DNA from: Escherichia phage vB_EcoS_SD276
Sequence record: OR911938.1
Strand: one strand, 5' to 3'
Length of the DNA stretch: 45,453 nt
The number at the start of each line of letters is the position of its first letter. Positions within the stretch are counted from its first letter, which is position 1. Below, piece after piece: positions 3,546-44,060 of the stretch. A model generated the notes under the pieces. That model saw nothing but the letters and a program-made list of their open reading frames with translations, was not told the origin of the DNA and searched no databases. The translations under genes were made by a program, and so were the position numbers.

Positions 3546-4632
3546 TCAATATATGGCGGATCGAATGATCCGCCGGCACATCTTCACCCAGCGCCTGAGC
3601 AATGGCCAGGCGCGAAGGGTGCTGGCTATGTGGGAGAAATTCCGGCCTACATTACTGGGGAAGCTGACCGAGTTGCTTGATGGCAAAAAGTCCATGAATA
3701 ATAAGGCACTTTCCACGCTGTTAACGCAACTCGACAAGACCGTTAAAGCAGAATTGCGCACCGAGTTTAAGGTGTTGGCTGAAAGCCTTCAGGAGTTTGC
3801 CGACACGGAGGCTGATTATCTCGCCGACACATTAACGGCAGCGATCCAGCCGGTGGTCGCCGTACCTGCGGTCGAGGTGGTTGGCGTAGTGACCGGTGCG
3901 CAGATCGCAGCGACGGCTATGAAAAACCCGTTCCAGGGAAATACCATGATGCAATGGCCTGATTCATTGTCTGAGTGGGCCAGGACGCAGATCAGGAATC
4001 AGGTGCGCGCTGGATTCATCCAGGGCAAGCCAACTATGGAAATTATAGCGGACGTGAGGCGCGCGCTCGGCGGTCGTAGTGCGCAAGCCATCTCGAGCGT
4101 TGTTAAGTCCGCAGTCAACCACTATGCGGCGACAGCCCGCGAACTAATGGTAAAAGCAAATGACGATATTCTCGAAGGTCGCCAATGGTTATCTACATTG
4201 GACACGCATACTTCTCCCATGTGCCAGCTACGCGATCGCCTGTTTTATCCGGTTGATGTTACTCCCGACACCAAAGGAAAGCGCGGCGGGAAAGTGGTGG
4301 CTGGGTCACAATATGGCGCTGGTCCGGGCAAGTTGCATTACTGTTGCCGGTCGACGGAGACGTGGAAGGTTAAAGGCATGGAAGATTGGCCCAGTGGTAA
4401 GCGTCCGGCACTGAAGGCTGACGCGGGTCGATTGCTGAGTGAGCAGGTCGACGCGCAGACTGATTTCTTCTCATGGGTGCAGCGCCAGCCGCGCCATATC
4501 CTGGAAGAATTATACGGAGTGCAACGCGCCGACCAGATTATGCGCGGCGTGAAAGTGCCAAAGATGTTCACCGATTCCGGCGAACTGATGACTATTGCAC
4601 AGCTTAAAAACCGGGGGTTGTGGCGTGATTAA
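3529..4632 (+). CDS. minor head / head morphogenesis protein (Mu F / SPP1 gp7-like)
   Basis: 367 aa after portal; C-terminal motif LSTLDTHTSPMCQLRDRLFYPVD resembles the Mu F-family domain. Confidence 0.6.
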   Translation: MAKTINQYMADRMIRRHIFTQRLSNGQARRVLAMWEKFRPTLLGKLTELLDGKKSMNNKALSTLLTQLDKTVKAELRTEFKVLAESLQEFADTEADYLADTLTAAIQPVVAVPAVEVVGVVTGAQIAATAMKNPFQGNTMMQWPDSLSEWARTQIRNQVRAGFIQGKPTMEIIADVRRALGGRSAQAISSVVKSAVNHYAATARELMVKANDDILEGRQWLSTLDTHTSPMCQLRDRLFYPVDVTPDTKGKRGGKVVAGSQYGAGPGKLHYCCRSTETWKVKGMEDWPSGKRPALKADAGRLLSEQVDAQTDFFSWVQRQPRHILEELYGVQRADQIMRGVKVPKMFTDSGELMTIAQLKNRGLWRD

Positions 4633-4954
4633 ATATGCAGCGATTGGACTGGTTATCGGTCTGGCGGTAGGATTCTGGCTAGGCGACTCCTATCGCGCTG
4701 GCGTAGTGGCGGGGGCGGCGCAAGAAGCGCAAGCCCAAGCCCAACGGCAGCAAACTAAAGTTGTTGAGCGCTCCGTGCAGGCCGAACAAGCCCGCGACGT
4801 AGAATACCGGACTATCACGAAAGAGGTTGTTAAATATGTTACGCGCCCTAACCGCCCTGATTGTAGTTTTGATGCTGAGCGCGTGCGGATCAAGCAACGC
4901 GCCGTTGATGCCGCTAACGGAGTCGGCACTGCGACCGCCGTGCAAGTTCGATAG
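4595..4954 (+). CDS. i-spanin (Rz-like); start may be GTG at 4625
   Basis: N-terminal transmembrane helix IKYAAIGLVIGLAVGFWLG followed by Q/A-rich coiled-coil segment; contains an out-of-frame lipoprotein ORF. Confidence 0.5.
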   Translation: MHSLKTGGCGVIKYAAIGLVIGLAVGFWLGDSYRAGVVAGAAQEAQAQAQRQQTKVVERSVQAEQARDVEYRTITKEVVKYVTRPNRPDCSFDAERVRIKQRAVDAANGVGTATAVQVR

Positions 4955-5066
4955 ACCGTCCGCAGACCCCGACGAAGATTTGATGATTGACGTGAAAAAT
5001 ATGGAATGCGGGGCGAAGCTAAGGGCGCAGGTGCTGGAGTTGCAGCAAATAATTAAGGGGCCATAA
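4827..5066 (+). CDS. o-spanin (Rz1-like outer-membrane lipoprotein), overlapping the Rz-like gene in another frame
   Basis: Signal peptide with lipobox LSAC-G, short Pro-containing mature part, embedded in and extending past the i-spanin ORF. Confidence 0.5.
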   Translation: MLNMLRALTALIVVLMLSACGSSNAPLMPLTESALRPPCKFDRPSADPDEDLMIDVKNMECGAKLRAQVLELQQIIKGP

Positions 5067-5079
5067 TGGCCCCTTTTTC
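5057..5079. terminator. bidirectional intrinsic terminator (GGGGCC-ATAAT-GGCCCC + T5)
   Basis: Perfect 6-bp GC stem with T-run; sits between convergent genes. Confidence 0.65.
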
Positions 5080-5080
5080 G

Positions 5081-5845
5081 TTAGCGCGGAATGCCGCAAA
5101 TCTCGTTGAGTGTTTTCACATCCAGCGCCACCGCCGTGGATTTTGGCTTGTCCGGGTATGGGATGAATTGCTCAACTTCAGGCCATGCCTTAATCAGCTT
5201 CTTGTCAGTGTTGTGCAGGTCCAGCACACCGGTAACGGTGAGTTTGAACGCATCATACTTCGCGCGCAACTCGCGACGGGCCTTGTCGTTGCGGTCCAGG
5301 CGCTTACAGAAGTCATGGTCCGCCGGGTAATCAACGCGACCGCGTGGGAGATATATCGGCAGCGCTTTCCCATCCTCGTCCACTTCGCACACTGACGCGA
5401 GCATAACTGTCTCGAACCCCGGAACGATATCGCCGAGATCAGGCGCGAGCTTATTCATATATTTCTCTTCCCAGTATCCGCGATGTACGCGGTATTGGCG
5501 ACCGTCACCGCTCAAGGACAAGGTGCGAACATTTCCGCCTGCGTTGATTTCGAAAGTGGCGTCGTAAACGCTGCCGATACCTTTCGGGCGGTCGGTGTTA
5601 TAACTATACGTCGCCTTGTTGGTGTATACGCTGACGCCGTACATCTGCGACTGGTCATCGCGGATTGACAGGATATGCTCGCGTAGCGAGGCGAATGTGC
5701 GAATGCCGTCCGGCATACAGTCCAGCGTGATTGCGTACGCCAGGTCGCGAGAGTCCATCATGATTGTTTTGGCTACGGTAGCGATTTCGTGGTCGCGCAG
5801 GATGTTAGCCAGGATCTGATTTTTAATGTCTTTTGTCAGTCTCAT
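5081..5845 (-). CDS. hypothetical protein (254 aa), antisense cassette gene 2
   Basis: Long ORF on opposite strand to flanking late genes, RBS GAGGACACAAAA-ATG, ends at bidirectional terminator 5057-5079. Confidence 0.6.
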   Translation of the reverse strand: MRLTKDIKNQILANILRDHEIATVAKTIMMDSRDLAYAITLDCMPDGIRTFASLREHILSIRDDQSQMYGVSVYTNKATYSYNTDRPKGIGSVYDATFEINAGGNVRTLSLSGDGRQYRVHRGYWEEKYMNKLAPDLGDIVPGFETVMLASVCEVDEDGKALPIYLPRGRVDYPADHDFCKRLDRNDKARRELRAKYDAFKLTVTGVLDLHNTDKKLIKAWPEVEQFIPYPDKPKSTAVALDVKTLNEICGIPR

Positions 5846-5884
5846 TTTTGTGTCCTCATTATTGGGGCTTTCGCCCCGATTGGT

Positions 5885-6199
5885 TTAGTTGAATTTGATG
5901 TTGCCACCGGTGGAAGTTAAGCGGGCACATACAGCTTCAACGGCATCGACGCACATGAAATCGTTAAAGGCTTCGACCAGGGAGTTTATGAAAGATGCCG
6001 GAACCAGGCCGCAAGCCGGATTATCGAATATCGCGGAGTTGATCGCCGCTTTTGCCGCTTCAGAAGCATTCATGCTCTGGCACAGATTCAGCGCTTCAGC
6101 GTTACGCATTGCGTGAAAGGTAAAGGTATTCGCTACGGTAGCTTTATTGAAACGGGCCATTGCGGCGTCTACTGGAGTTGCTACGGTCATGTTAGTCAT
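5885..6199 (-). CDS. hypothetical protein (~105 aa), antisense cassette gene 1
   Basis: ORF with RBS AAGGAAGACAAA-ATG downstream of a sigma70-like promoter (6235-6264, minus). Confidence 0.5.
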   Translation of the reverse strand: MTNMTVATPVDAAMARFNKATVANTFTFHAMRNAEALNLCQSMNASEAAKAAINSAIFDNPACGLVPASFINSLVEAFNDFMCVDAVEAVCARLTSTGGNIKFN

Positions 6200-6234
6200 T
6201 TTGTCTTCCTTCATATCTCTGTTGGTGTGCAACC

Positions 6235-6264
6235 AATATACCGCAACCAACATTCGCAATGCAA
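6235..6264 (-). promoter_or_regulatory. sigma70-like promoter for antisense cassette (TTGCAT-N18-TATATT)
   Basis: Hexamers read on minus strand; followed by GGTTGCACACCAAC and RBS. Confidence 0.5.
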
Positions 6265-6271
6265 GCGAATT

Positions 6272-6299
6272 TTGCGATTATTTTTATCGCTGATAATAT
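6272..6299 (+). promoter_or_regulatory. possible promoter upstream of scaffold gene (TTGCGA-N16-TAATAT)
   Basis: Hexamer match by eye, divergent from the antisense cassette promoter. Confidence 0.3.
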
Positions 6300-6353
6300 T
6301 AAGGCGTGAAGTCAAGCGGGTGGCCCGCTTTGCCACAATCCCAGGGGGATAGC

Positions 6354-7058
6354 ATGAAACTTACTAAAGCAGAATATGACGCGTTGCCAGAAGGCATGAA
6401 GGCTTTATTTGTTGCCGATGGCGATGGGTATAAATCCACGTTCATGACCGCCGAAGAAGTACAGGCGGAGATCAAGGGTCTGAAAGACAACAACGCGAAG
6501 CTGGTTAGCGAGAAGAAAGCAGAAGCCGAACGTCGCGCCGAAGCCGAGCGCCTTGCGAAAGAGAAAGAGGAAGCCGCCGCGCGCAAAAATGGCGACCTCG
6601 AAGCGATCGATAAGTCCTGGAAAGATAAGTTCGCAAAACATGAAGCGGACACATCTGGGAAGATCGAAGCCTACCGCAAGCAGATCCACGACCTAACCAT
6701 CGGCAGCGCTGCCAAAGATTTGGCCTCGAAGCTGTTCGGTAAGAATGCAGGCATCATGCAACGCCACGTTATGGACCGCCTCACGCTGGAAGACGGCGAA
6801 GACGGCAGCCTGAAGGTGCGGGTACTGAAGGACGGCAAACCATCCGCGCTGACTATGGAAGAACTGGAGAAAGAATTCCGTAGTAACGCCGATTTTGCAT
6901 CCGTCCTGGCGGGCACGCCAGCCGGCGGTGCGCCGAGCAAACCGACGCAGGTCGTAGAAGATGTGAAGTCGAAAATCACTATGGGCCACAGCTTCGGTAT
7001 CGCTGACTTGACGAAACAGGCAGGGGATATCATCGCTAAAATGGGCGACGACGAGTAA
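6354..7058 (+). CDS. head scaffolding protein
   Basis: Charged coiled-coil-like protein (KKAEAERRAEAERLAKEKEEAAARK) immediately upstream of major capsid gene; RBS AGGGGGA. Confidence 0.6.
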   Translation: MKLTKAEYDALPEGMKALFVADGDGYKSTFMTAEEVQAEIKGLKDNNAKLVSEKKAEAERRAEAERLAKEKEEAAARKNGDLEAIDKSWKDKFAKHEADTSGKIEAYRKQIHDLTIGSAAKDLASKLFGKNAGIMQRHVMDRLTLEDGEDGSLKVRVLKDGKPSALTMEELEKEFRSNADFASVLAGTPAGGAPSKPTQVVEDVKSKITMGHSFGIADLTKQAGDIIAKMGDDE

Positions 7059-7062
7059 GCAG

Positions 7063-7087
7063 ATCGCCCGCGAAAGCGGGCGATTTT
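7063..7087 (+). terminator. intrinsic terminator/attenuator after scaffold gene
   Basis: ATCGCCCGC-GAAA-GCGGGCGAT followed by TTTTG. Confidence 0.5.
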
Positions 7088-7155
7088 GCGAGCGCGTAAA
7101 TCTAAGGTAACATTAACGACACTGAGCGAATGCTCACAACTCAAAGGATTCTAAT

Positions 7156-8256
7156 ATGTCTTTAACAGTGTTCCAGCGTAAACTCGTCACCGCGGTTACG
7201 CAAATGATTCCCGATAACCTGAACGTGTTCAACGCTGCCGCTAACGGCGCTGTTGTTCTCGGCACGGGTGAAGTGCTGAAGGACGTTGTAGAAAAAATGT
7301 CCGTAGGCTTGATCGCCAACCTCGTTACCGACCGTAACGCCTACGCCCCTGTCGGTACTCCGGCGACCGCAAAAGTTCTGGCGCGTATGCTGACCAACTC
7401 GGTTAACCTTTCCGCGAAAGTGGGTCCGGTAGCAATCACTAAGGCCATGATGGCTAAGATTGAAACCAACGTTAACAGCGTTGCGGCTGAGATTGCGGCA
7501 CAGGCTACTCAAGCGATTATGCTGCATTACCTGAAGGCCGGTATTGGCGCGAGTAAAGCAGCGATCGAAAGCAACGAAGCGGCAAAATACACCCAACCGG
7601 CGCGCGTTGACGGCGTTGGTGGTCGTACCTTCCCGACCCTGGCAGACTTCCCGCTGGCGGCTTCCAAGTTCGGCGATCAGGCGTCTTTGATTAAATCCTG
7701 GTTTATGGACGGCGTTACCTGGGCAAACTTCATCGCTTACCAGGCGCTTCCATCTGCCGAGCAGGTATTCGCGATCGGCGATCTGCAGGTAATGGGCGAT
7801 GGCCTGGGCCGCCGTTTCATTATCTCCGATGCCGCTGCCGATGCAATGGGTGCGGGTAAAATGCTGGGTCTGGTCCCTGGCGCGGTTGCAGTTACCACCA
7901 ACGGCCTTGATATGCTGGCGCAGGAAAAAGGCGGTAACGAGAACATTGAGCGCTGGTGGCAGGGTGAGTTCGACTTCAACGTGGCTGTTAAAGGCTATCG
8001 TCTGAAGGCGTCCGCTCGCACTCCGATCGAAGGTGTGCGCTCGTTCAAACTGGGCGATATCACCACTTCCGCTAACTGGGAACTGGACCAGGGCCAGGTA
8101 GACAACGCACCGGCAACCGTTCAGGATGTTGGCGCTGTTGGTGACGGCGATACTAAAGGCCGTCGTAAGACCCAGGCTGCGCAGGAAGTGCCGACCCGTC
8201 ACATCAAGGAAACGGCGGGCGTACTGGTTACGCTGACCCCGACCAAAGCGTCCTGA
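7156..8256 (+). CDS. major capsid protein
   Basis: 366 aa ORF after scaffold with strong RBS AAAGGA and followed by a strong terminator; position and size. Confidence 0.7.
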   Translation: MSLTVFQRKLVTAVTQMIPDNLNVFNAAANGAVVLGTGEVLKDVVEKMSVGLIANLVTDRNAYAPVGTPATAKVLARMLTNSVNLSAKVGPVAITKAMMAKIETNVNSVAAEIAAQATQAIMLHYLKAGIGASKAAIESNEAAKYTQPARVDGVGGRTFPTLADFPLAASKFGDQASLIKSWFMDGVTWANFIAYQALPSAEQVFAIGDLQVMGDGLGRRFIISDAAADAMGAGKMLGLVPGAVAVTTNGLDMLAQEKGGNENIERWWQGEFDFNVAVKGYRLKASARTPIEGVRSFKLGDITTSANWELDQGQVDNAPATVQDVGAVGDGDTKGRRKTQAAQEVPTRHIKETAGVLVTLTPTKAS

Positions 8257-26033: not shown

Positions 26034-26063
26034 ACTATAGTGCAACCAACCTATTGGTTGCAA
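26034..26063 (-). promoter_or_regulatory. sigma70-like promoter (TTGCAA-N18-TATAGT)
   Basis: Hexamers on minus strand, GGTTGC boxes in spacer, followed by leader hairpin. Confidence 0.5.
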
Positions 26064-26742: not shown

Positions 26743-27208
26743 GGAGTTCTCCTTCGCTCATTATTTCAATTTGTGCGCCGCCGAAGGGTGGCGCTTCGTC
26801 GAAGATTATCAATTGCTGGCACTTGTTATTGCTAGGCCCGACTTCGCCGGTGACGGCGTGTATAAATCTAATCCGCCAGTCCAGAAGAATTATCAGGTTT
26901 GCAGTCTTCCTGGCCAGCTTCGCCCACTTCGTCGACGTGTCCTGATTCAGTAGCATGACCGTCCGGCGTCCGTGCGCTGCGCACTTTACCCACGGCAGCG
27001 GATCGGAGTACGGCGGATTGCACCACTTCCACCCTTTCAACTCGGACCAGTCCACATCAAGCGCGCTGTGTTCTGCAGTGAAGTAACGCGGTAGCAGGTG
27101 GTTTGCATCGCTTGCCGCCATATCGTAACGGAATCGGTACTTCCGGCGAAGCGGTTTAAATAAAGCTGGTGGCGTGCGCCAGCTATCTTTTTGCTCACTC
27201 TTCAGCAT
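26723..27208 (-). CDS. DNA N6-adenine (or N4-cytosine) methyltransferase, phage Dam-like
   Basis: Catalytic tetrapeptide NPPY within WCNPPYSD; small size typical of phage Dam-family enzymes. Confidence 0.65.
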   Translation of the reverse strand: MLKSEQKDSWRTPPALFKPLRRKYRFRYDMAASDANHLLPRYFTAEHSALDVDWSELKGWKWCNPPYSDPLPWVKCAAHGRRTVMLLNQDTSTKWAKLARKTANLIILLDWRIRFIHAVTGEVGPSNNKCQQLIIFDEAPPFGGAQIEIMSEGELLEYLNR

Positions 27209-27659
27209 GGTCGGGATCTATCGCATACAGGGCAATCTTGTCACCTTTTTTCAGGATTCGCTGCAATCGCTGCGTCTCCGACACACCTAAAGGGCGCGCG
27301 TCCGGGTAGAAGTTGCCGTTTGTGGGGTTGCGCCACGCCATAAGCACCAGATCTTTCCGGTCGATCTTAGACTGGCGGCCCTTCGGTCGCACGTACTCCT
27401 CGGCCCGTTTGCAATGCTCGCGCAGACCTTCGGCGGTGACGCGGTTTAGTGCAACGCTGGTGGTGTATCCGGTGCGCTGCATAATCCCCATCAGTTCGAA
27501 AAGCAGTTCGAAGCGCTCCTCTAACTCTATGCGACGCTTTTCTTCCGTTTCATAGCTTAACAGGTAGGTATCCGCCAGCGCGTTCGCACGTTCGGCCTGT
27601 TCGCGGGCTTCGAGGCATTGCGCGGCCCAGTAATTTTTCTCTTCTTGTAAAATTTTCAT
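27195..27659 (-). CDS. hypothetical protein (154 aa)
   Basis: ORF downstream of promoter 27706-27734 (minus) and leader hairpin; start chosen at MKILQEE. Confidence 0.45.
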   Translation of the reverse strand: MKILQEEKNYWAAQCLEAREQAERANALADTYLLSYETEEKRRIELEERFELLFELMGIMQRTGYTTSVALNRVTAEGLREHCKRAEEYVRPKGRQSKIDRKDLVLMAWRNPTNGNFYPDARPLGVSETQRLQRILKKGDKIALYAIDPDHAEE

Positions 27660-27705: not shown

Positions 27706-27734
27706 AATATAATGCAACCAATATGATTATGCAA
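27706..27734 (-). promoter_or_regulatory. sigma70-like promoter (TTGCAT-N17-TATATT)
   Basis: Hexamers on minus strand, TTGGTTGCAT repeated twice. Confidence 0.55.
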
Positions 27735-27739
27735 CCAAT

Positions 27740-30646: not shown

Positions 30647-30675
30647 ACTATACCGCTATGCGACCAATTCAGCAA
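30647..30675 (-). promoter_or_regulatory. sigma70-like promoter (TTGCTG-N17-TATAGT)
   Basis: Hexamers on minus strand upstream of zinc-ribbon gene. Confidence 0.45.
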
Positions 30676-30934
30676 CCAATAAATCACAGTCGGCAATGTT
30701 GTCTATAACGCGAACGTCAGCGCCGCGGCGGGCCATCCGCTCGTGTTCTCGTACCTGGTGCGGCTTAGGTTTGCCGCCTGGGCGCTTCACTTCGACGAAC
30801 ACTATTTTGCCGTTGATGATGATAATCAGATCGGGCGCACCCGAGCGCCCCTCCCATGCCACTTTGCGGCAGAATCCGCCGACGGCTTTCACCCGTCCCA
30901 TCAAGTGACTTTGAATCTTGCCTTCTGGTGTCAT
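30656..30934 (-). CDS. VRR-NUC domain nuclease
   Basis: Motif PDLIIIINGKIVFVEVKRPGGKPKPHQ (D...E-V-K...Q) typical of VRR-NUC; overlaps polymerase stop. Confidence 0.55.
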   Translation of the reverse strand: MTPEGKIQSHLMGRVKAVGGFCRKVAWEGRSGAPDLIIIINGKIVFVEVKRPGGKPKPHQVREHERMARRGADVRVIDNIADCDLLVAELVA

Positions 30935-34229: not shown

Positions 34230-34294
34230 TTTCCAATTCCTCATTTTCACATGTATCGGGGTTATTGTGAGCCACCCCGTTCGGCTTGGTTGCT

Positions 34295-34323
34295 AATCTA
34301 CTTGGTTGCGCCTAAGCGGTCAA
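34295..34323 (-). promoter_or_regulatory. sigma70-like promoter (TTGACC-N17-TAGATT)
   Basis: Hexamers on minus strand upstream of SSB-like gene, GCAACCAAG boxes. Confidence 0.5.
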
Positions 34324-40017: not shown

Positions 40018-40127
40018 AATTTGCGCGCATTGGTTGCCGATATGGGAATTCCCATATCGCTAAAAGACTAAAATTTGCGCGCATTGGTTGCCATTTTGAG
40101 TGTTTTTAGCTGGTCGCATTGGTTGCC
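40016..40127. repeat. GCATTGGTTGCC iteron-like direct repeats (3 copies) with inverted copy at 40398-40409
   Basis: AAAATTTGCGCGCATTGGTTGCC at 40016-40038 and 40070-40092, GCATTGGTTGCC at 40116-40127; flanks 20-bp perfect palindrome GATATGGGAATTCCCATATC (40039-40058). Confidence 0.6.
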
Positions 40128-40338: not shown

Positions 40339-40493
40339 AAATCCGGGATTGCAAAATACACGGCAGCACATTGGAAATCGCGGTCGTCGACGAACTAGGC
40401 AACCAATGCGAGATGCGGAATGGTGGGTGGAAAATGCAGTTTGCATTTGCAACGGATAGCGATCGACTTTTTCATACGCGTGATTAATATTGG

Positions 40494-40522
40494 TTGCATT
40501 CGTGCCCGCACCCTGCTAGATT
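40494..40522 (+). promoter_or_regulatory. sigma70-like promoter (TTGCAT-N17-TAGATT)
   Basis: Followed by GGTTGCACACCAAC, the same motif that follows the -10 of promoter 6235-6264. Confidence 0.5.
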
Positions 40523-40550
40523 GGTTGCACACCAACATGAGGACCGAACA

Positions 40551-43859: not shown

Positions 43860-43889
43860 TTGACTTGCAACCAACATAGACGCCATACT
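43860..43889 (+). promoter_or_regulatory. possible promoter (TTGACT-N18-CATACT)
   Basis: Weak -10; lies after terminator 43831-43857 and before phosphoesterase gene. Confidence 0.3.
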
Positions 43890-44060
43890 GCGACCAACCA
43901 AGAAGAGGAGTAATCAAGATGGCACGTAAAGACGTTTGGGTATTGGCAATCTGGACCGCCGCGGCTTTTATCGGCATGGTTATTTGCGAATTGAGATAGC
44001 CCGCCGCCATATGGACCGTGGTATATTGTCCACGGTCCAATAATCAGGAAGTAATTAAAT

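Follow-up and report, generated by a model that had tools for sequence, protein, structure and literature searches.

A minus-strand unit between the spanin and scaffold genes of a Dhillonvirus genome combines a resident nmad5 gene with a swappable cargo slot

Why do two genes run against the direction of transcription among the packaging and head genes of Escherichia phage vB_EcoS_SD276 (OR911938.1), and do they belong together? The window, by which we mean the whole 45,453-nucleotide stretch analyzed here, carries on its minus strand nmad5, encoding a protein of 254 amino acids (aa), and a small open reading frame (ORF) of 104 aa. An earlier note on this DNA had described them as a two-gene cassette in moron placement inside the late structural operon and as a candidate for an undescribed accessory system. 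In our assessment, the locus is probably one autonomous antisense unit with a conserved promoter, a swappable cargo gene, a near-core nmad5 gene, and a terminator, in which Nmad5 would act as a non-catalytic adaptor. Along the direction of transcription, the proposed order is the conserved promoter and leader, the cargo slot, a tetraloop hairpin, nmad5, and a bidirectional terminator (Table 1).

Region 4500–7200 of the window matched 158 phage records at 80–99% nucleotide identity, 134 of which covered at least 80% of the region. Nearly all of them were Escherichia phages of the genus Dhillonvirus (e.g., SSL-2009a, HK578-like phages, PEC14, and HH3), and the window is a Dhillonvirus, an E. coli siphophage. 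The SSL-2009a annotation was collinear with the window and gave the order terminase, portal, MuF-like head morphogenesis protein, embedded i-/o-spanin pair, two minus-strand hypothetical genes, scaffold, and major head protein. The minus-strand unit separates two plus-strand late units, one running from terminase to the spanins and the other comprising the scaffold, capsid, and tail genes; it is bordered by a terminator on one side and a promoter region on the other rather than lying within a single operon, so its assignment to the inside of a late structural operon was not upheld. Both minus-strand frames were under purifying selection, with median dN/dS (nonsynonymous to synonymous substitution) values of 0.116 for nmad5 and 0.091 for the small ORF, which bears out the two antisense ORFs of the earlier note (given there as about 105 and 254 aa). 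The overlapping plus-strand ORFs (e.g., 5066–5395) were dropped as true genes, as purifying selection and a family match were seen in the minus-strand frames.

Scaffold and nmad5 starts in Dhillonvirus loci were separated by one of five discrete distances: 148, 325, 508, ~605, or 742 bp. The slot between them had identical flanks throughout; the promoter and the leader (...TATATTGGTTGCACACCAACA) bounded it at one end, and the ribosome-binding site of nmad5 at the other. The comparison with relatives that the earlier note had proposed showed that they do swap or lack the small ORF, and five slot states were found. The slot was empty in SM_S22, L017, and L020–L022 (L numbers are our handles); it held the 104-aa ORF in the window phage and SSL-2009a (~60 records), a 172-aa single-domain beta-clamp-like protein in EP23 (16 records at ≥80% identity), a 135-aa ORF in HK578 and PTXU06 (7 records), and a 52-aa ORF in EK99P-1 and Dru_SM5 (4 records). 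The clamp-like protein, annotated as "DNA polymerase III beta subunit", had a weak match to PF02767 (E = 7e-4, under the cutoff). In EP23, the clamp-like gene was followed by leftover last codons of the 104-aa ORF and then by the same hairpin; one cargo has therefore replaced another. The leader and Shine–Dalgarno (SD) sequence were identical ahead of the 104-aa ORF and the unrelated 135-aa cargo (the latter in L015, L019, and HK578), placing the exchange boundaries at the start and stop codons. These comparisons showed that the slot behaves as a swap site, and that the small ORF moves among unrelated enterobacterial phages together with a 3′ GC hairpin.

A tblastn search of the phage collection found Nmad5 at ≥80% identity in ~145 records and at 60–80% in 4 more, i.e., in ~149 nmad5-bearing Dhillonvirus-like records. 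Each of the two genes was found without the other. In SM_S22, L006, L007, L017, and L020–L022, nmad5 abuts the promoter with no small ORF between them. In HK578 (L035, 700–790), the type species, the sequence runs intact from the cargo through the hairpin and the nmad5 ribosome-binding site to the first five nmad5 codons (MRLTK) and then passes straight to the terminator hairpin, a clean nmad5 deletion. A functional pair, in which the 104-aa protein neutralizes or regulates a toxic Nmad5 or both form a joint anti-defense system, would fit two adjacent genes on the same strand with a shared promoter and only a nonterminating hairpin between them, as well as the published toxicity of nmad5 alone on cloning. 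Such a pair is nevertheless very improbable, and the gene distributions strongly disfavor it: ~60% of the nmad5-bearing Dhillonvirus records were without the small ORF, its place was empty or taken by unrelated genes, HK578 has a cargo gene without nmad5, and small-ORF homologs of four other lineages have no Nmad5 neighbor. The two genes are best regarded as co-transcribed neighbors and not as a functional pair.

The composition of nmad5 was typical of the genome (GC 54.2%; GC at third codon positions, GC3, 67%). Among Dhillonviruses, its median dN was 0.053 and its median dS 0.49, compared with 0.004 and 0.135 for the adjacent scaffold gene (6354–7055), that is, ~13 times the dN and 3.6 times the dS. 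This difference suggests looser constraint on nmad5, although dN/dS stays near 0.1, and the dS, much above that of the scaffold gene, points to the exchange of old nmad5 alleles by recombination. Among metagenomic variants, P0055 joined small-ORF residues 1–45 to the last ~42 residues of Nmad5, and P0041 and P0042 were Nmad5 proteins truncated at the C terminus. We conclude that nmad5 is a resident, near-core Dhillonvirus gene, which is dispensable and evolves faster than the neighboring scaffold gene; being near-universal at this site in the genus, of genome-typical GC, and lost only by deletion (HK578), it is not a recent moron. The small ORF, by comparison, had a GC content of 49.8% and a GC3 of 54%, versus 54.6% GC for the genome and 62–67% GC3 for its neighbors. 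It is a genuine moron, because its presence varies among close relatives, its GC is lower, and it is mobile with a 3′ hairpin. The moron placement proposed for both genes thus holds for the small ORF, whose homolog in phage L004 also has a consensus promoter, but not for nmad5.

The 254-aa protein was a full-length match to PF18757 (nucleotide modification associated domain 5; E = 1.2e-58, 199.1 bits against a gathering cutoff of 27), with residues 1–253 aligned to profile positions 1–206 of 206, and it also matched phrog_1965. The claim that neither protein carries a family motif therefore failed for the 254-aa protein; for the 104-aa protein, the only family match was phrog_24635, of unknown function. 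Scans of NCBIfam and PADLOC gave no family for either protein.

A Dhillonvirus nmad5 next to the scaffold gene has been studied by Yamashita et al. (2025, Commun Biol; PMC11846954). Tmn is a bacterial defense, a membrane NTPase. Two phages, SM_A8 and SM_S22, gave spontaneous mutants that escaped Tmn, and in both the change was Lys216Glu, numbered Lys296Glu in SM_S22; reverting the change brought sensitivity back, and engineering it gave Tmn escape (PMC11846954). Deletion of nmad5, by contrast, gave a viable phage that did not escape Tmn, and cloning of the gene was toxic (PMC11846954). The same study, the one experimental paper on Nmad5, calls it a "DNA modification enzyme" (PMC11846954). The GenBank nmad5 coding sequence (CDS) of SM_S22 (PP627283.1 5005–6009) has an 80-codon N-terminal over-extension in antisense overlap with the scaffold gene, and K296 of that record is therefore K216 of the 254-aa protein. 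Nmad5 of the window was 87% identical to nmad5 (CDS6) of SM_S22, at the same genome position, and K216 was present within TDKKLIKAWPEV. Thus, the description as an undescribed accessory system was right in that the locus is accessory and nmad5 dispensable, but there is no two-gene system here and nmad5 was already described as a Tmn-escape locus. These data also bear on a role of both proteins as head-assembly or structural components, which their location in the head-gene region, between the portal/MuF and scaffold genes, might suggest. This reading is extremely improbable and is refuted in practice by the viable deletions: the published nmad5 deletion is viable, and the earlier note's own counter-scenario of structural proteins conserved in all relatives was not seen, HK578 having no nmad5 and many relatives no small ORF. 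Moreover, the unit has a promoter and a terminator of its own on the opposite strand, and homologs elsewhere lie in early operons.

The Nmad domains were reportedly defined by Iyer et al. in 2013, and the RefSeq product name of the E. coli prophage homolog is 'Nmad5 family putative nucleotide modification protein'. A lambdoid Nmad5 homolog was present in 211 of 5426 complete E. coli genomes. The gene for HK542_033, a full-length PF18757 protein (E = 3e-72), directly follows N in the PL operon and precedes erf and abc2. In three other clades, the Nmad5 homolog lay in an early replication operon with a DUF2800 exonuclease, an Enc34/gp2.5-type single-stranded DNA-binding protein (SSB), and PolA. 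Dhillonviruses own the same PolA/DUF2800/SSB module, with nmad5 set apart in the antisense unit. In YuA, M6, and SN1, Nmad5 is encoded inside a thymidine-hypermodification cluster (aGPT-Pplase, kinase, and deoxyuridine (dU) hydroxymethylase genes), and YuA gp15 matched PF18757 with E = 4e-56. This neighborhood of base-modification genes, the basis of the family name, was not found at the window locus, where the neighbors are spanin and scaffold genes; the collinear SSL-2009a annotation contained no aGPT-Pplase, hydroxymethylase, or modification kinase, and only methyltransferases ~20 kb from nmad5. Judged from these gene neighborhoods, the common denominator of the family is an early DNA-metabolism context and not base modification.

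Nmad5 might nonetheless be a DNA- or nucleotide-base-modifying enzyme, or an essential subunit of one, whose modification is sensed by Tmn; this is the reading of PMC11846954. The family and RefSeq names, the hypermodification cluster of YuA, M6, and SN1, the Nmad5 of L037 lying two genes away from an N6/N4 methyltransferase, and the toxic cloning are in its favor. We consider it unlikely. Besides the Dhillonvirus annotation, full-length homologs in lambdoid PL and replication operons had no such enzymes annotated or detected nearby, and Tmn sensing of a modification made by Nmad5 is hard to square with the nmad5 deletion, because that deletion gives no escape. No catalytic constellation was conserved when 16 diverse family members, YuA gp15 and HK542_033 among them, were aligned. 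Positions conserved in at least 80% of the members were R2, L3, T4, I11, L35, G138, R170, T213, L217, K219, W221, P222, E223, L246, and N247, so that the window protein carries the family signatures, N-terminal R-L-T and C-terminal T-x3-L-x3-W-P-E followed by L-N. Position 216 was K or R in 12 of the 16, and the central region ranged from ~20 residues (YuA gp15) to ~100 residues (window protein).

The AlphaFold2 (AF2) model of Nmad5 (predicted local distance difference test score, pLDDT, 76; predicted template modeling score, pTM, 0.74) consisted of long paired helices with a small beta insert: helices 5–42 and 51–62, a beta-rich middle, a long helix 178–209, short helices at ~214–227, and a low-confidence tail 232–254 that is nonetheless among the most conserved sequence of the family. 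Of the checks by profile and structure search that the earlier note had suggested, the former gave PF18757, but the model matched no solved structure. Comparison with BFVD structures returned only other uncharacterized Nmad5-family proteins, and a profile search of PDB sequences returned only noise (ribosomal L23, E ~0.5). The lack of a structure match and of a catalytic constellation, together with the early operons without base-modification genes annotated or detected nearby, argues against the "DNA modification enzyme" label.

How, then, might a substitution at K216 affect Tmn? Nmad5 is not a simple Tmn trigger, because nmad5 deletion gives no escape. We propose tentatively that Nmad5 works as a helical adaptor without catalytic activity, acting at the phage machinery for DNA replication, recombination, or modification; its conserved C-terminal helix (T213-x-x-K216-L-x-x-x-W-P-E) would be a protein-contact surface. 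A change at K216 would alter what Tmn sees, and the process that Tmn senses would stay; a contact surface would explain why the K216E charge reversal alters the Tmn outcome while deletion does not (PMC11846954). A fuller scheme is conceivable and carries similarly limited weight: a non-catalytic Nmad5, expressed early, would dock through its termini on the replication or recombination machinery or on a host factor, its K216 surface would control the firing of Tmn and similar membrane NTPase defenses, the slot would serve specifically for the exchange of host-takeover or anti-defense morons, and the 104-aa Cys/His protein would be a so far undescribed effector of this type.

The same genetics could also arise if wild-type Nmad5 were an anti-defense protein against some host system and K216E extended its inhibition to Tmn. 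A missense change that escapes where deletion does not, an early promoter-proximal position typical of anti-defense genes (e.g., directly after N in HK542), the 13-fold dN relative to the scaffold gene, and a variable center between conserved termini agree with this idea. It is doubtful, however, since no defense phenotype is known for wild-type Nmad5, position 216 is conserved as basic, so that charge reversal looks like loss of a contact rather than a gain, the overall dN/dS of 0.12 indicates purifying selection, and PADLOC, a library of defense systems and not of anti-defense proteins, gave no match.

The adaptor interpretation remains our preferred one for Nmad5, and several lines bear on when the unit would be expressed. 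Across 14 Dhillonvirus sequences, neither the −10 TATATT nor the TTGC of the −35 varied, and the two were spaced 17–18 nt apart; an 8-nt patch of the spacer was hypervariable, and the rest of the intergenic region was almost invariant. The minus-strand promoter at 6264–6235 is plausible. The A/T-rich tract upstream of it resembles an UP element and might act as one; it overlaps the plus-strand promoter-like site of the scaffold gene. An inverted repeat ATTCGC...GCGAAT across the −35 was dropped as an operator, as it is not conserved in relatives. The downstream copy of TTGGTTGC(A/G) opens a conserved leader, TTGGTTGCACACCAACA.

The 9-mer TTGGTTGCA occurred 25 times in the window with one mismatch allowed, compared with 11.9 ± 3.5 expected, and none of 100 shuffles reached 25. 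Its copies were often paired at early-region intergenic sites (26041/26054, 27713/27730, 30659/30671, 40490/40521, and 43866/43889). The sites were 6228–6250, 22336, 26041–26062, 27713–27738, 30659–30679, 34286–34310, 37218, 40030–40127, 40490–40529, and 43866–43897, often beside −10-like elements. The copies at 27713 and 40521 sit in TTGCAT-17-TATATT and TTGCAT-17-TAGATT arrangements, and at 40521 the same leader and ribosome-binding site recur (40521–40545). The 9-mer may mark a family of promoters or be bound by a regulator of the phage. Because this element and the leader are common to early-region promoters, the unit would fall into the early promoter class; early expression is also suggested by the Nmad5 homologs of other phages, which lie in early operons. 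The promoter would be of the host RNA polymerase type.

On the plus strand, 6265–6353 contained a promoter-like TTGCGA-16-TAATAT followed by a conserved hairpin, AAGCGGGTGGCCCGCTT (~6316–6332), in the 5′ untranslated region of the scaffold gene. This arrangement, in the same intergenic region as the minus-strand promoter, suggests back-to-back divergent promoters, with late transcription restarting here past the terminator at 5055–5075.

At the other end of the unit, the bidirectional terminator of the earlier note was confirmed, as the scan called the hairpin terminator-like on both strands. It folds at −21.8 kcal/mol on the plus strand and −19.6 kcal/mol on the minus strand, with the tails TTTCGTTAGC (TTTTT if the final bases of the stem are included) and AATTATTTGC, respectively, the latter being the weaker of the two. 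The hairpin lies 5 nt past the nmad5 stop, overlaps the o-spanin stop codon, and is common to the convergent o-spanin (+) and nmad5 (−) genes; the HK578 record annotates terminators at the same place. The intercistronic hairpin proposed earlier was also present where expected (−11.5 kcal/mol, z = −2.87). The minus strand continues after it with AAUAAUGAGGA, the nmad5 ribosome-binding site, and has no U-tract; a role as intrinsic terminator of the small ORF was therefore rejected, and read-through into nmad5 is expected. The GAAA hairpin was found with the 104-aa, clamp-like, or 135-aa cargo and was absent with the empty slot or the 52-aa ORF. The nmad5 SD sequence was kept as (C/T)GAGGACAC in all relatives compared, whether cargo was present or absent. 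An Rfam search of 4800–6500 gave no credible RNA family.

Table 1. Features of the minus-strand unit and their positions in the window
Feature	Position	Strand	Remarks
nmad5	5081–5845 (including stop codon)	−	254 aa, PF18757 full-length
Small ORF (variable cargo, moron)	5885–6199 (including stop codon)	−	104 aa, phrog_24635
nmad5 Shine–Dalgarno GAGGA	5853–5857	−	7 nt ahead of ATG at 5845; read from sequence
Small-ORF Shine–Dalgarno AGGAAG	6205–6210	−	5 nt ahead of ATG at 6199
Candidate sigma70-type promoter	6235–6264	−	−35 TTGCAT (6264–6259), 18-nt spacer, −10 TATATT (6240–6235)
A/T-rich tract (ATCAGCGATAAAAATAATCGCAAAA)	6271–6295	−	Directly upstream of −35; near-invariant in all relatives compared
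Two direct copies of TTGGTTGC(A/G) around −10	6228–6250	−	Copies at 6242–6250 and 6228–6236
Bidirectional intrinsic-terminator hairpin (AAGGGGCCATAATGGCCCCTT)	5055–5075	Both	9-bp stem, 6 GC pairs
GNRA-capped hairpin GGGGC-GAAA-GCCCC	5864–5877	−	Right-hand boundary of cargo slot

The longest frame of the small ORF, 5885–6259 (−), would give 124 aa from a TTG start. The true start is the ATG at 6199, giving 104 aa, because an SD sequence precedes it, homologs start there, and an upstream ATG lies out of frame before the unrelated ORF of relatives. The small ORF was present in 71 phage records, at ≥90% identity in ~60 of them. When 1.84 billion representative proteins were searched exhaustively with a profile of the 104-aa protein, only four clusters came up, and a profile search of PDB sequences found nothing. 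The protein is mostly helical and mildly acidic (isoelectric point 5.1). H29, C63, C83, C91, and D59-N60-P61-A62-C63-G64-L65-V66-P67 (DNPACGLVP) were invariant in its homologs, and metal binding is possible.

Homologs of 57–74% identity were found in four unrelated phages, none with an Nmad5 neighbor: a PurZ/HD-encoding phage (L004), where the gene follows DNA ligase; an ERF/SSB/primase phage, where it lies beside an Imm-like gene; an Ackermannviridae phage; and Pantoea phage AAM37. In all four, a GC-rich tetraloop hairpin differing in sequence from that of the window followed within ~12 nt (GGGGCC-GAAA-GGCCCC, GCCCGG-ATTG-CCGGGC, GCCCC-TCCG-GGGGC, and GCCCGG-TGCG-CCGGGC). In L004, a perfect TTGACA-17-TATAAT stands ahead of the homolog. 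The 104-aa protein can be placed among the promoter-proximal morons that virulent enterobacterial phages carry; it would most likely be a moron of the host-takeover or anti-defense type, with nothing favoring either.

L004 (1344–3287 and 6001–6309 of a 47-kb contig) held the closest non-Dhillonvirus homolog, at 74% identity. The adenylosuccinate-synthase-like (PurZ-type) and HD-domain proteins it encodes suggest a phage with 2-aminoadenine DNA. A 184-aa gene beside the homolog was rejected as a diverged Nmad5 (hhalign probability 0.4%).

Several points weigh against the explanation we prefer. The non-catalytic view of Nmad5 draws on a medium-confidence model and absent matches, so that a new enzyme fold is possible, and the thymidine-hypermodification association for which the family is named is real in YuA/M6-type phages. 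The published genetics, in which a missense change escapes and deletion does not, fits several models. The sigma70-like promoter of the earlier note, conserved as its hexamers are, matches the consensus at only 8 of 12 positions, below the threshold of a generic scan, which did not call it; we infer the early timing and the transcription start site of the minus-strand unit from sequence. The AF2 model of the 104-aa protein was unusable (pLDDT 51). Finally, the record counts include GenBank/RefSeq duplicates.

Some observations concern the surroundings of the unit and its relatives. The embedded spanin pair at 4595–5066 (+) lies in the packaging/head region, ~37 kb from the holin and endolysin genes (~42–43 kb); the o-spanin has the lipobox LSAC and its stop codon inside the terminator stem. 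In MG065648.1, labeled 'Campylobacter phage A144', an nmad5 of 96% identity lies at 198–959; the record is probably a mislabeled Dhillonvirus or a contaminated assembly. Clamp-like genes were located at 4400–4920 in EP23 (L012) and at 1044–1565 in Kagunavirus fFiEco02 (L036), in the latter antisense at an analogous head-region place; clamp-like relatives occurred in 285 phage records, the majority from siphophages of Salmonella, Escherichia, and Klebsiella. The product of 27198–27659 (−) was 80% identical to SM_S22 CDS0035, a 154-aa protein annotated 'DNA ligase'. Judging by its number, CDS0035 probably corresponds to ORF35, the anti-Tmn protein of PMC11846954. A paired TTGGTTGCA promoter-like site (27713–27738) stands immediately upstream of the CDS0035 homolog.

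The Nmad5 family, and the Dhillonvirus nmad5 as a locus of Tmn-escape mutations, were already known; new here are the slot architecture, the evidence against the modification-enzyme label, and a list of candidate cargo genes. On the adaptor interpretation, the Tmn-escape genetics would be read as a protein surface and not a DNA mark, with a bearing on phage engineering for therapy. The swap slot offers a short list of accessory candidates to examine against defense systems, namely, the 104-aa, single-domain beta-clamp-like, 135-aa, and 52-aa ORFs. Beyond the slot and the question of the label, the locus represents fairly ordinary phage mosaicism.

Among known systems, nmad5 of SM_A8 (CDS7) and SM_S22 (CDS6) is the same gene: it is orthologous, antisense between the spanin and scaffold genes, 254 aa in length, and has K216. 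The SM_S22 locus differs in its empty cargo slot, where the window phage carries the 104-aa ORF. HK542_033 and the homologs of Stx1/Stx2 prophages share with the window nmad5 the full-length PF18757 domain and the character of a small accessory gene near a promoter; HK542 differs in being a temperate phage with the gene in its PL early operon, Erf/Abc2-type recombination, and no PolA. The Pseudomonas Nmad5 proteins (YuA gp15, M6, and SN1) share the N-terminal RLT and C-terminal TTxK(K/R)LIExWPE...LN motifs with the window protein, but at ~186 aa they are without the ~100-residue beta-rich insert. In T2, the early protein RIIB is recognized directly by Tmn as a trigger (PMC13001434, bioRxiv 2026). 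Nmad5 resembles RIIB as an early phage protein whose single substitutions decide whether Tmn stops infection; unlike with Nmad5, nonsense rIIB mutations lead to escape, and RIIB alone activates Tmn. The small ORF, finally, is like morons in the Hendrix/Juhala sense (e.g., the cor gene in the tail region of the same genome) in being an extra gene between conserved neighbors, present in only some relatives, with lower GC and in a unit flanked by a promoter-like site and a hairpin/terminator. Unlike a typical moron, it uses a resident promoter shared with nmad5 and has a 3′ hairpin of its own without a U-tract, and at its slot at least four different genes replace one another, with exchange points at the ORF start and stop codons.

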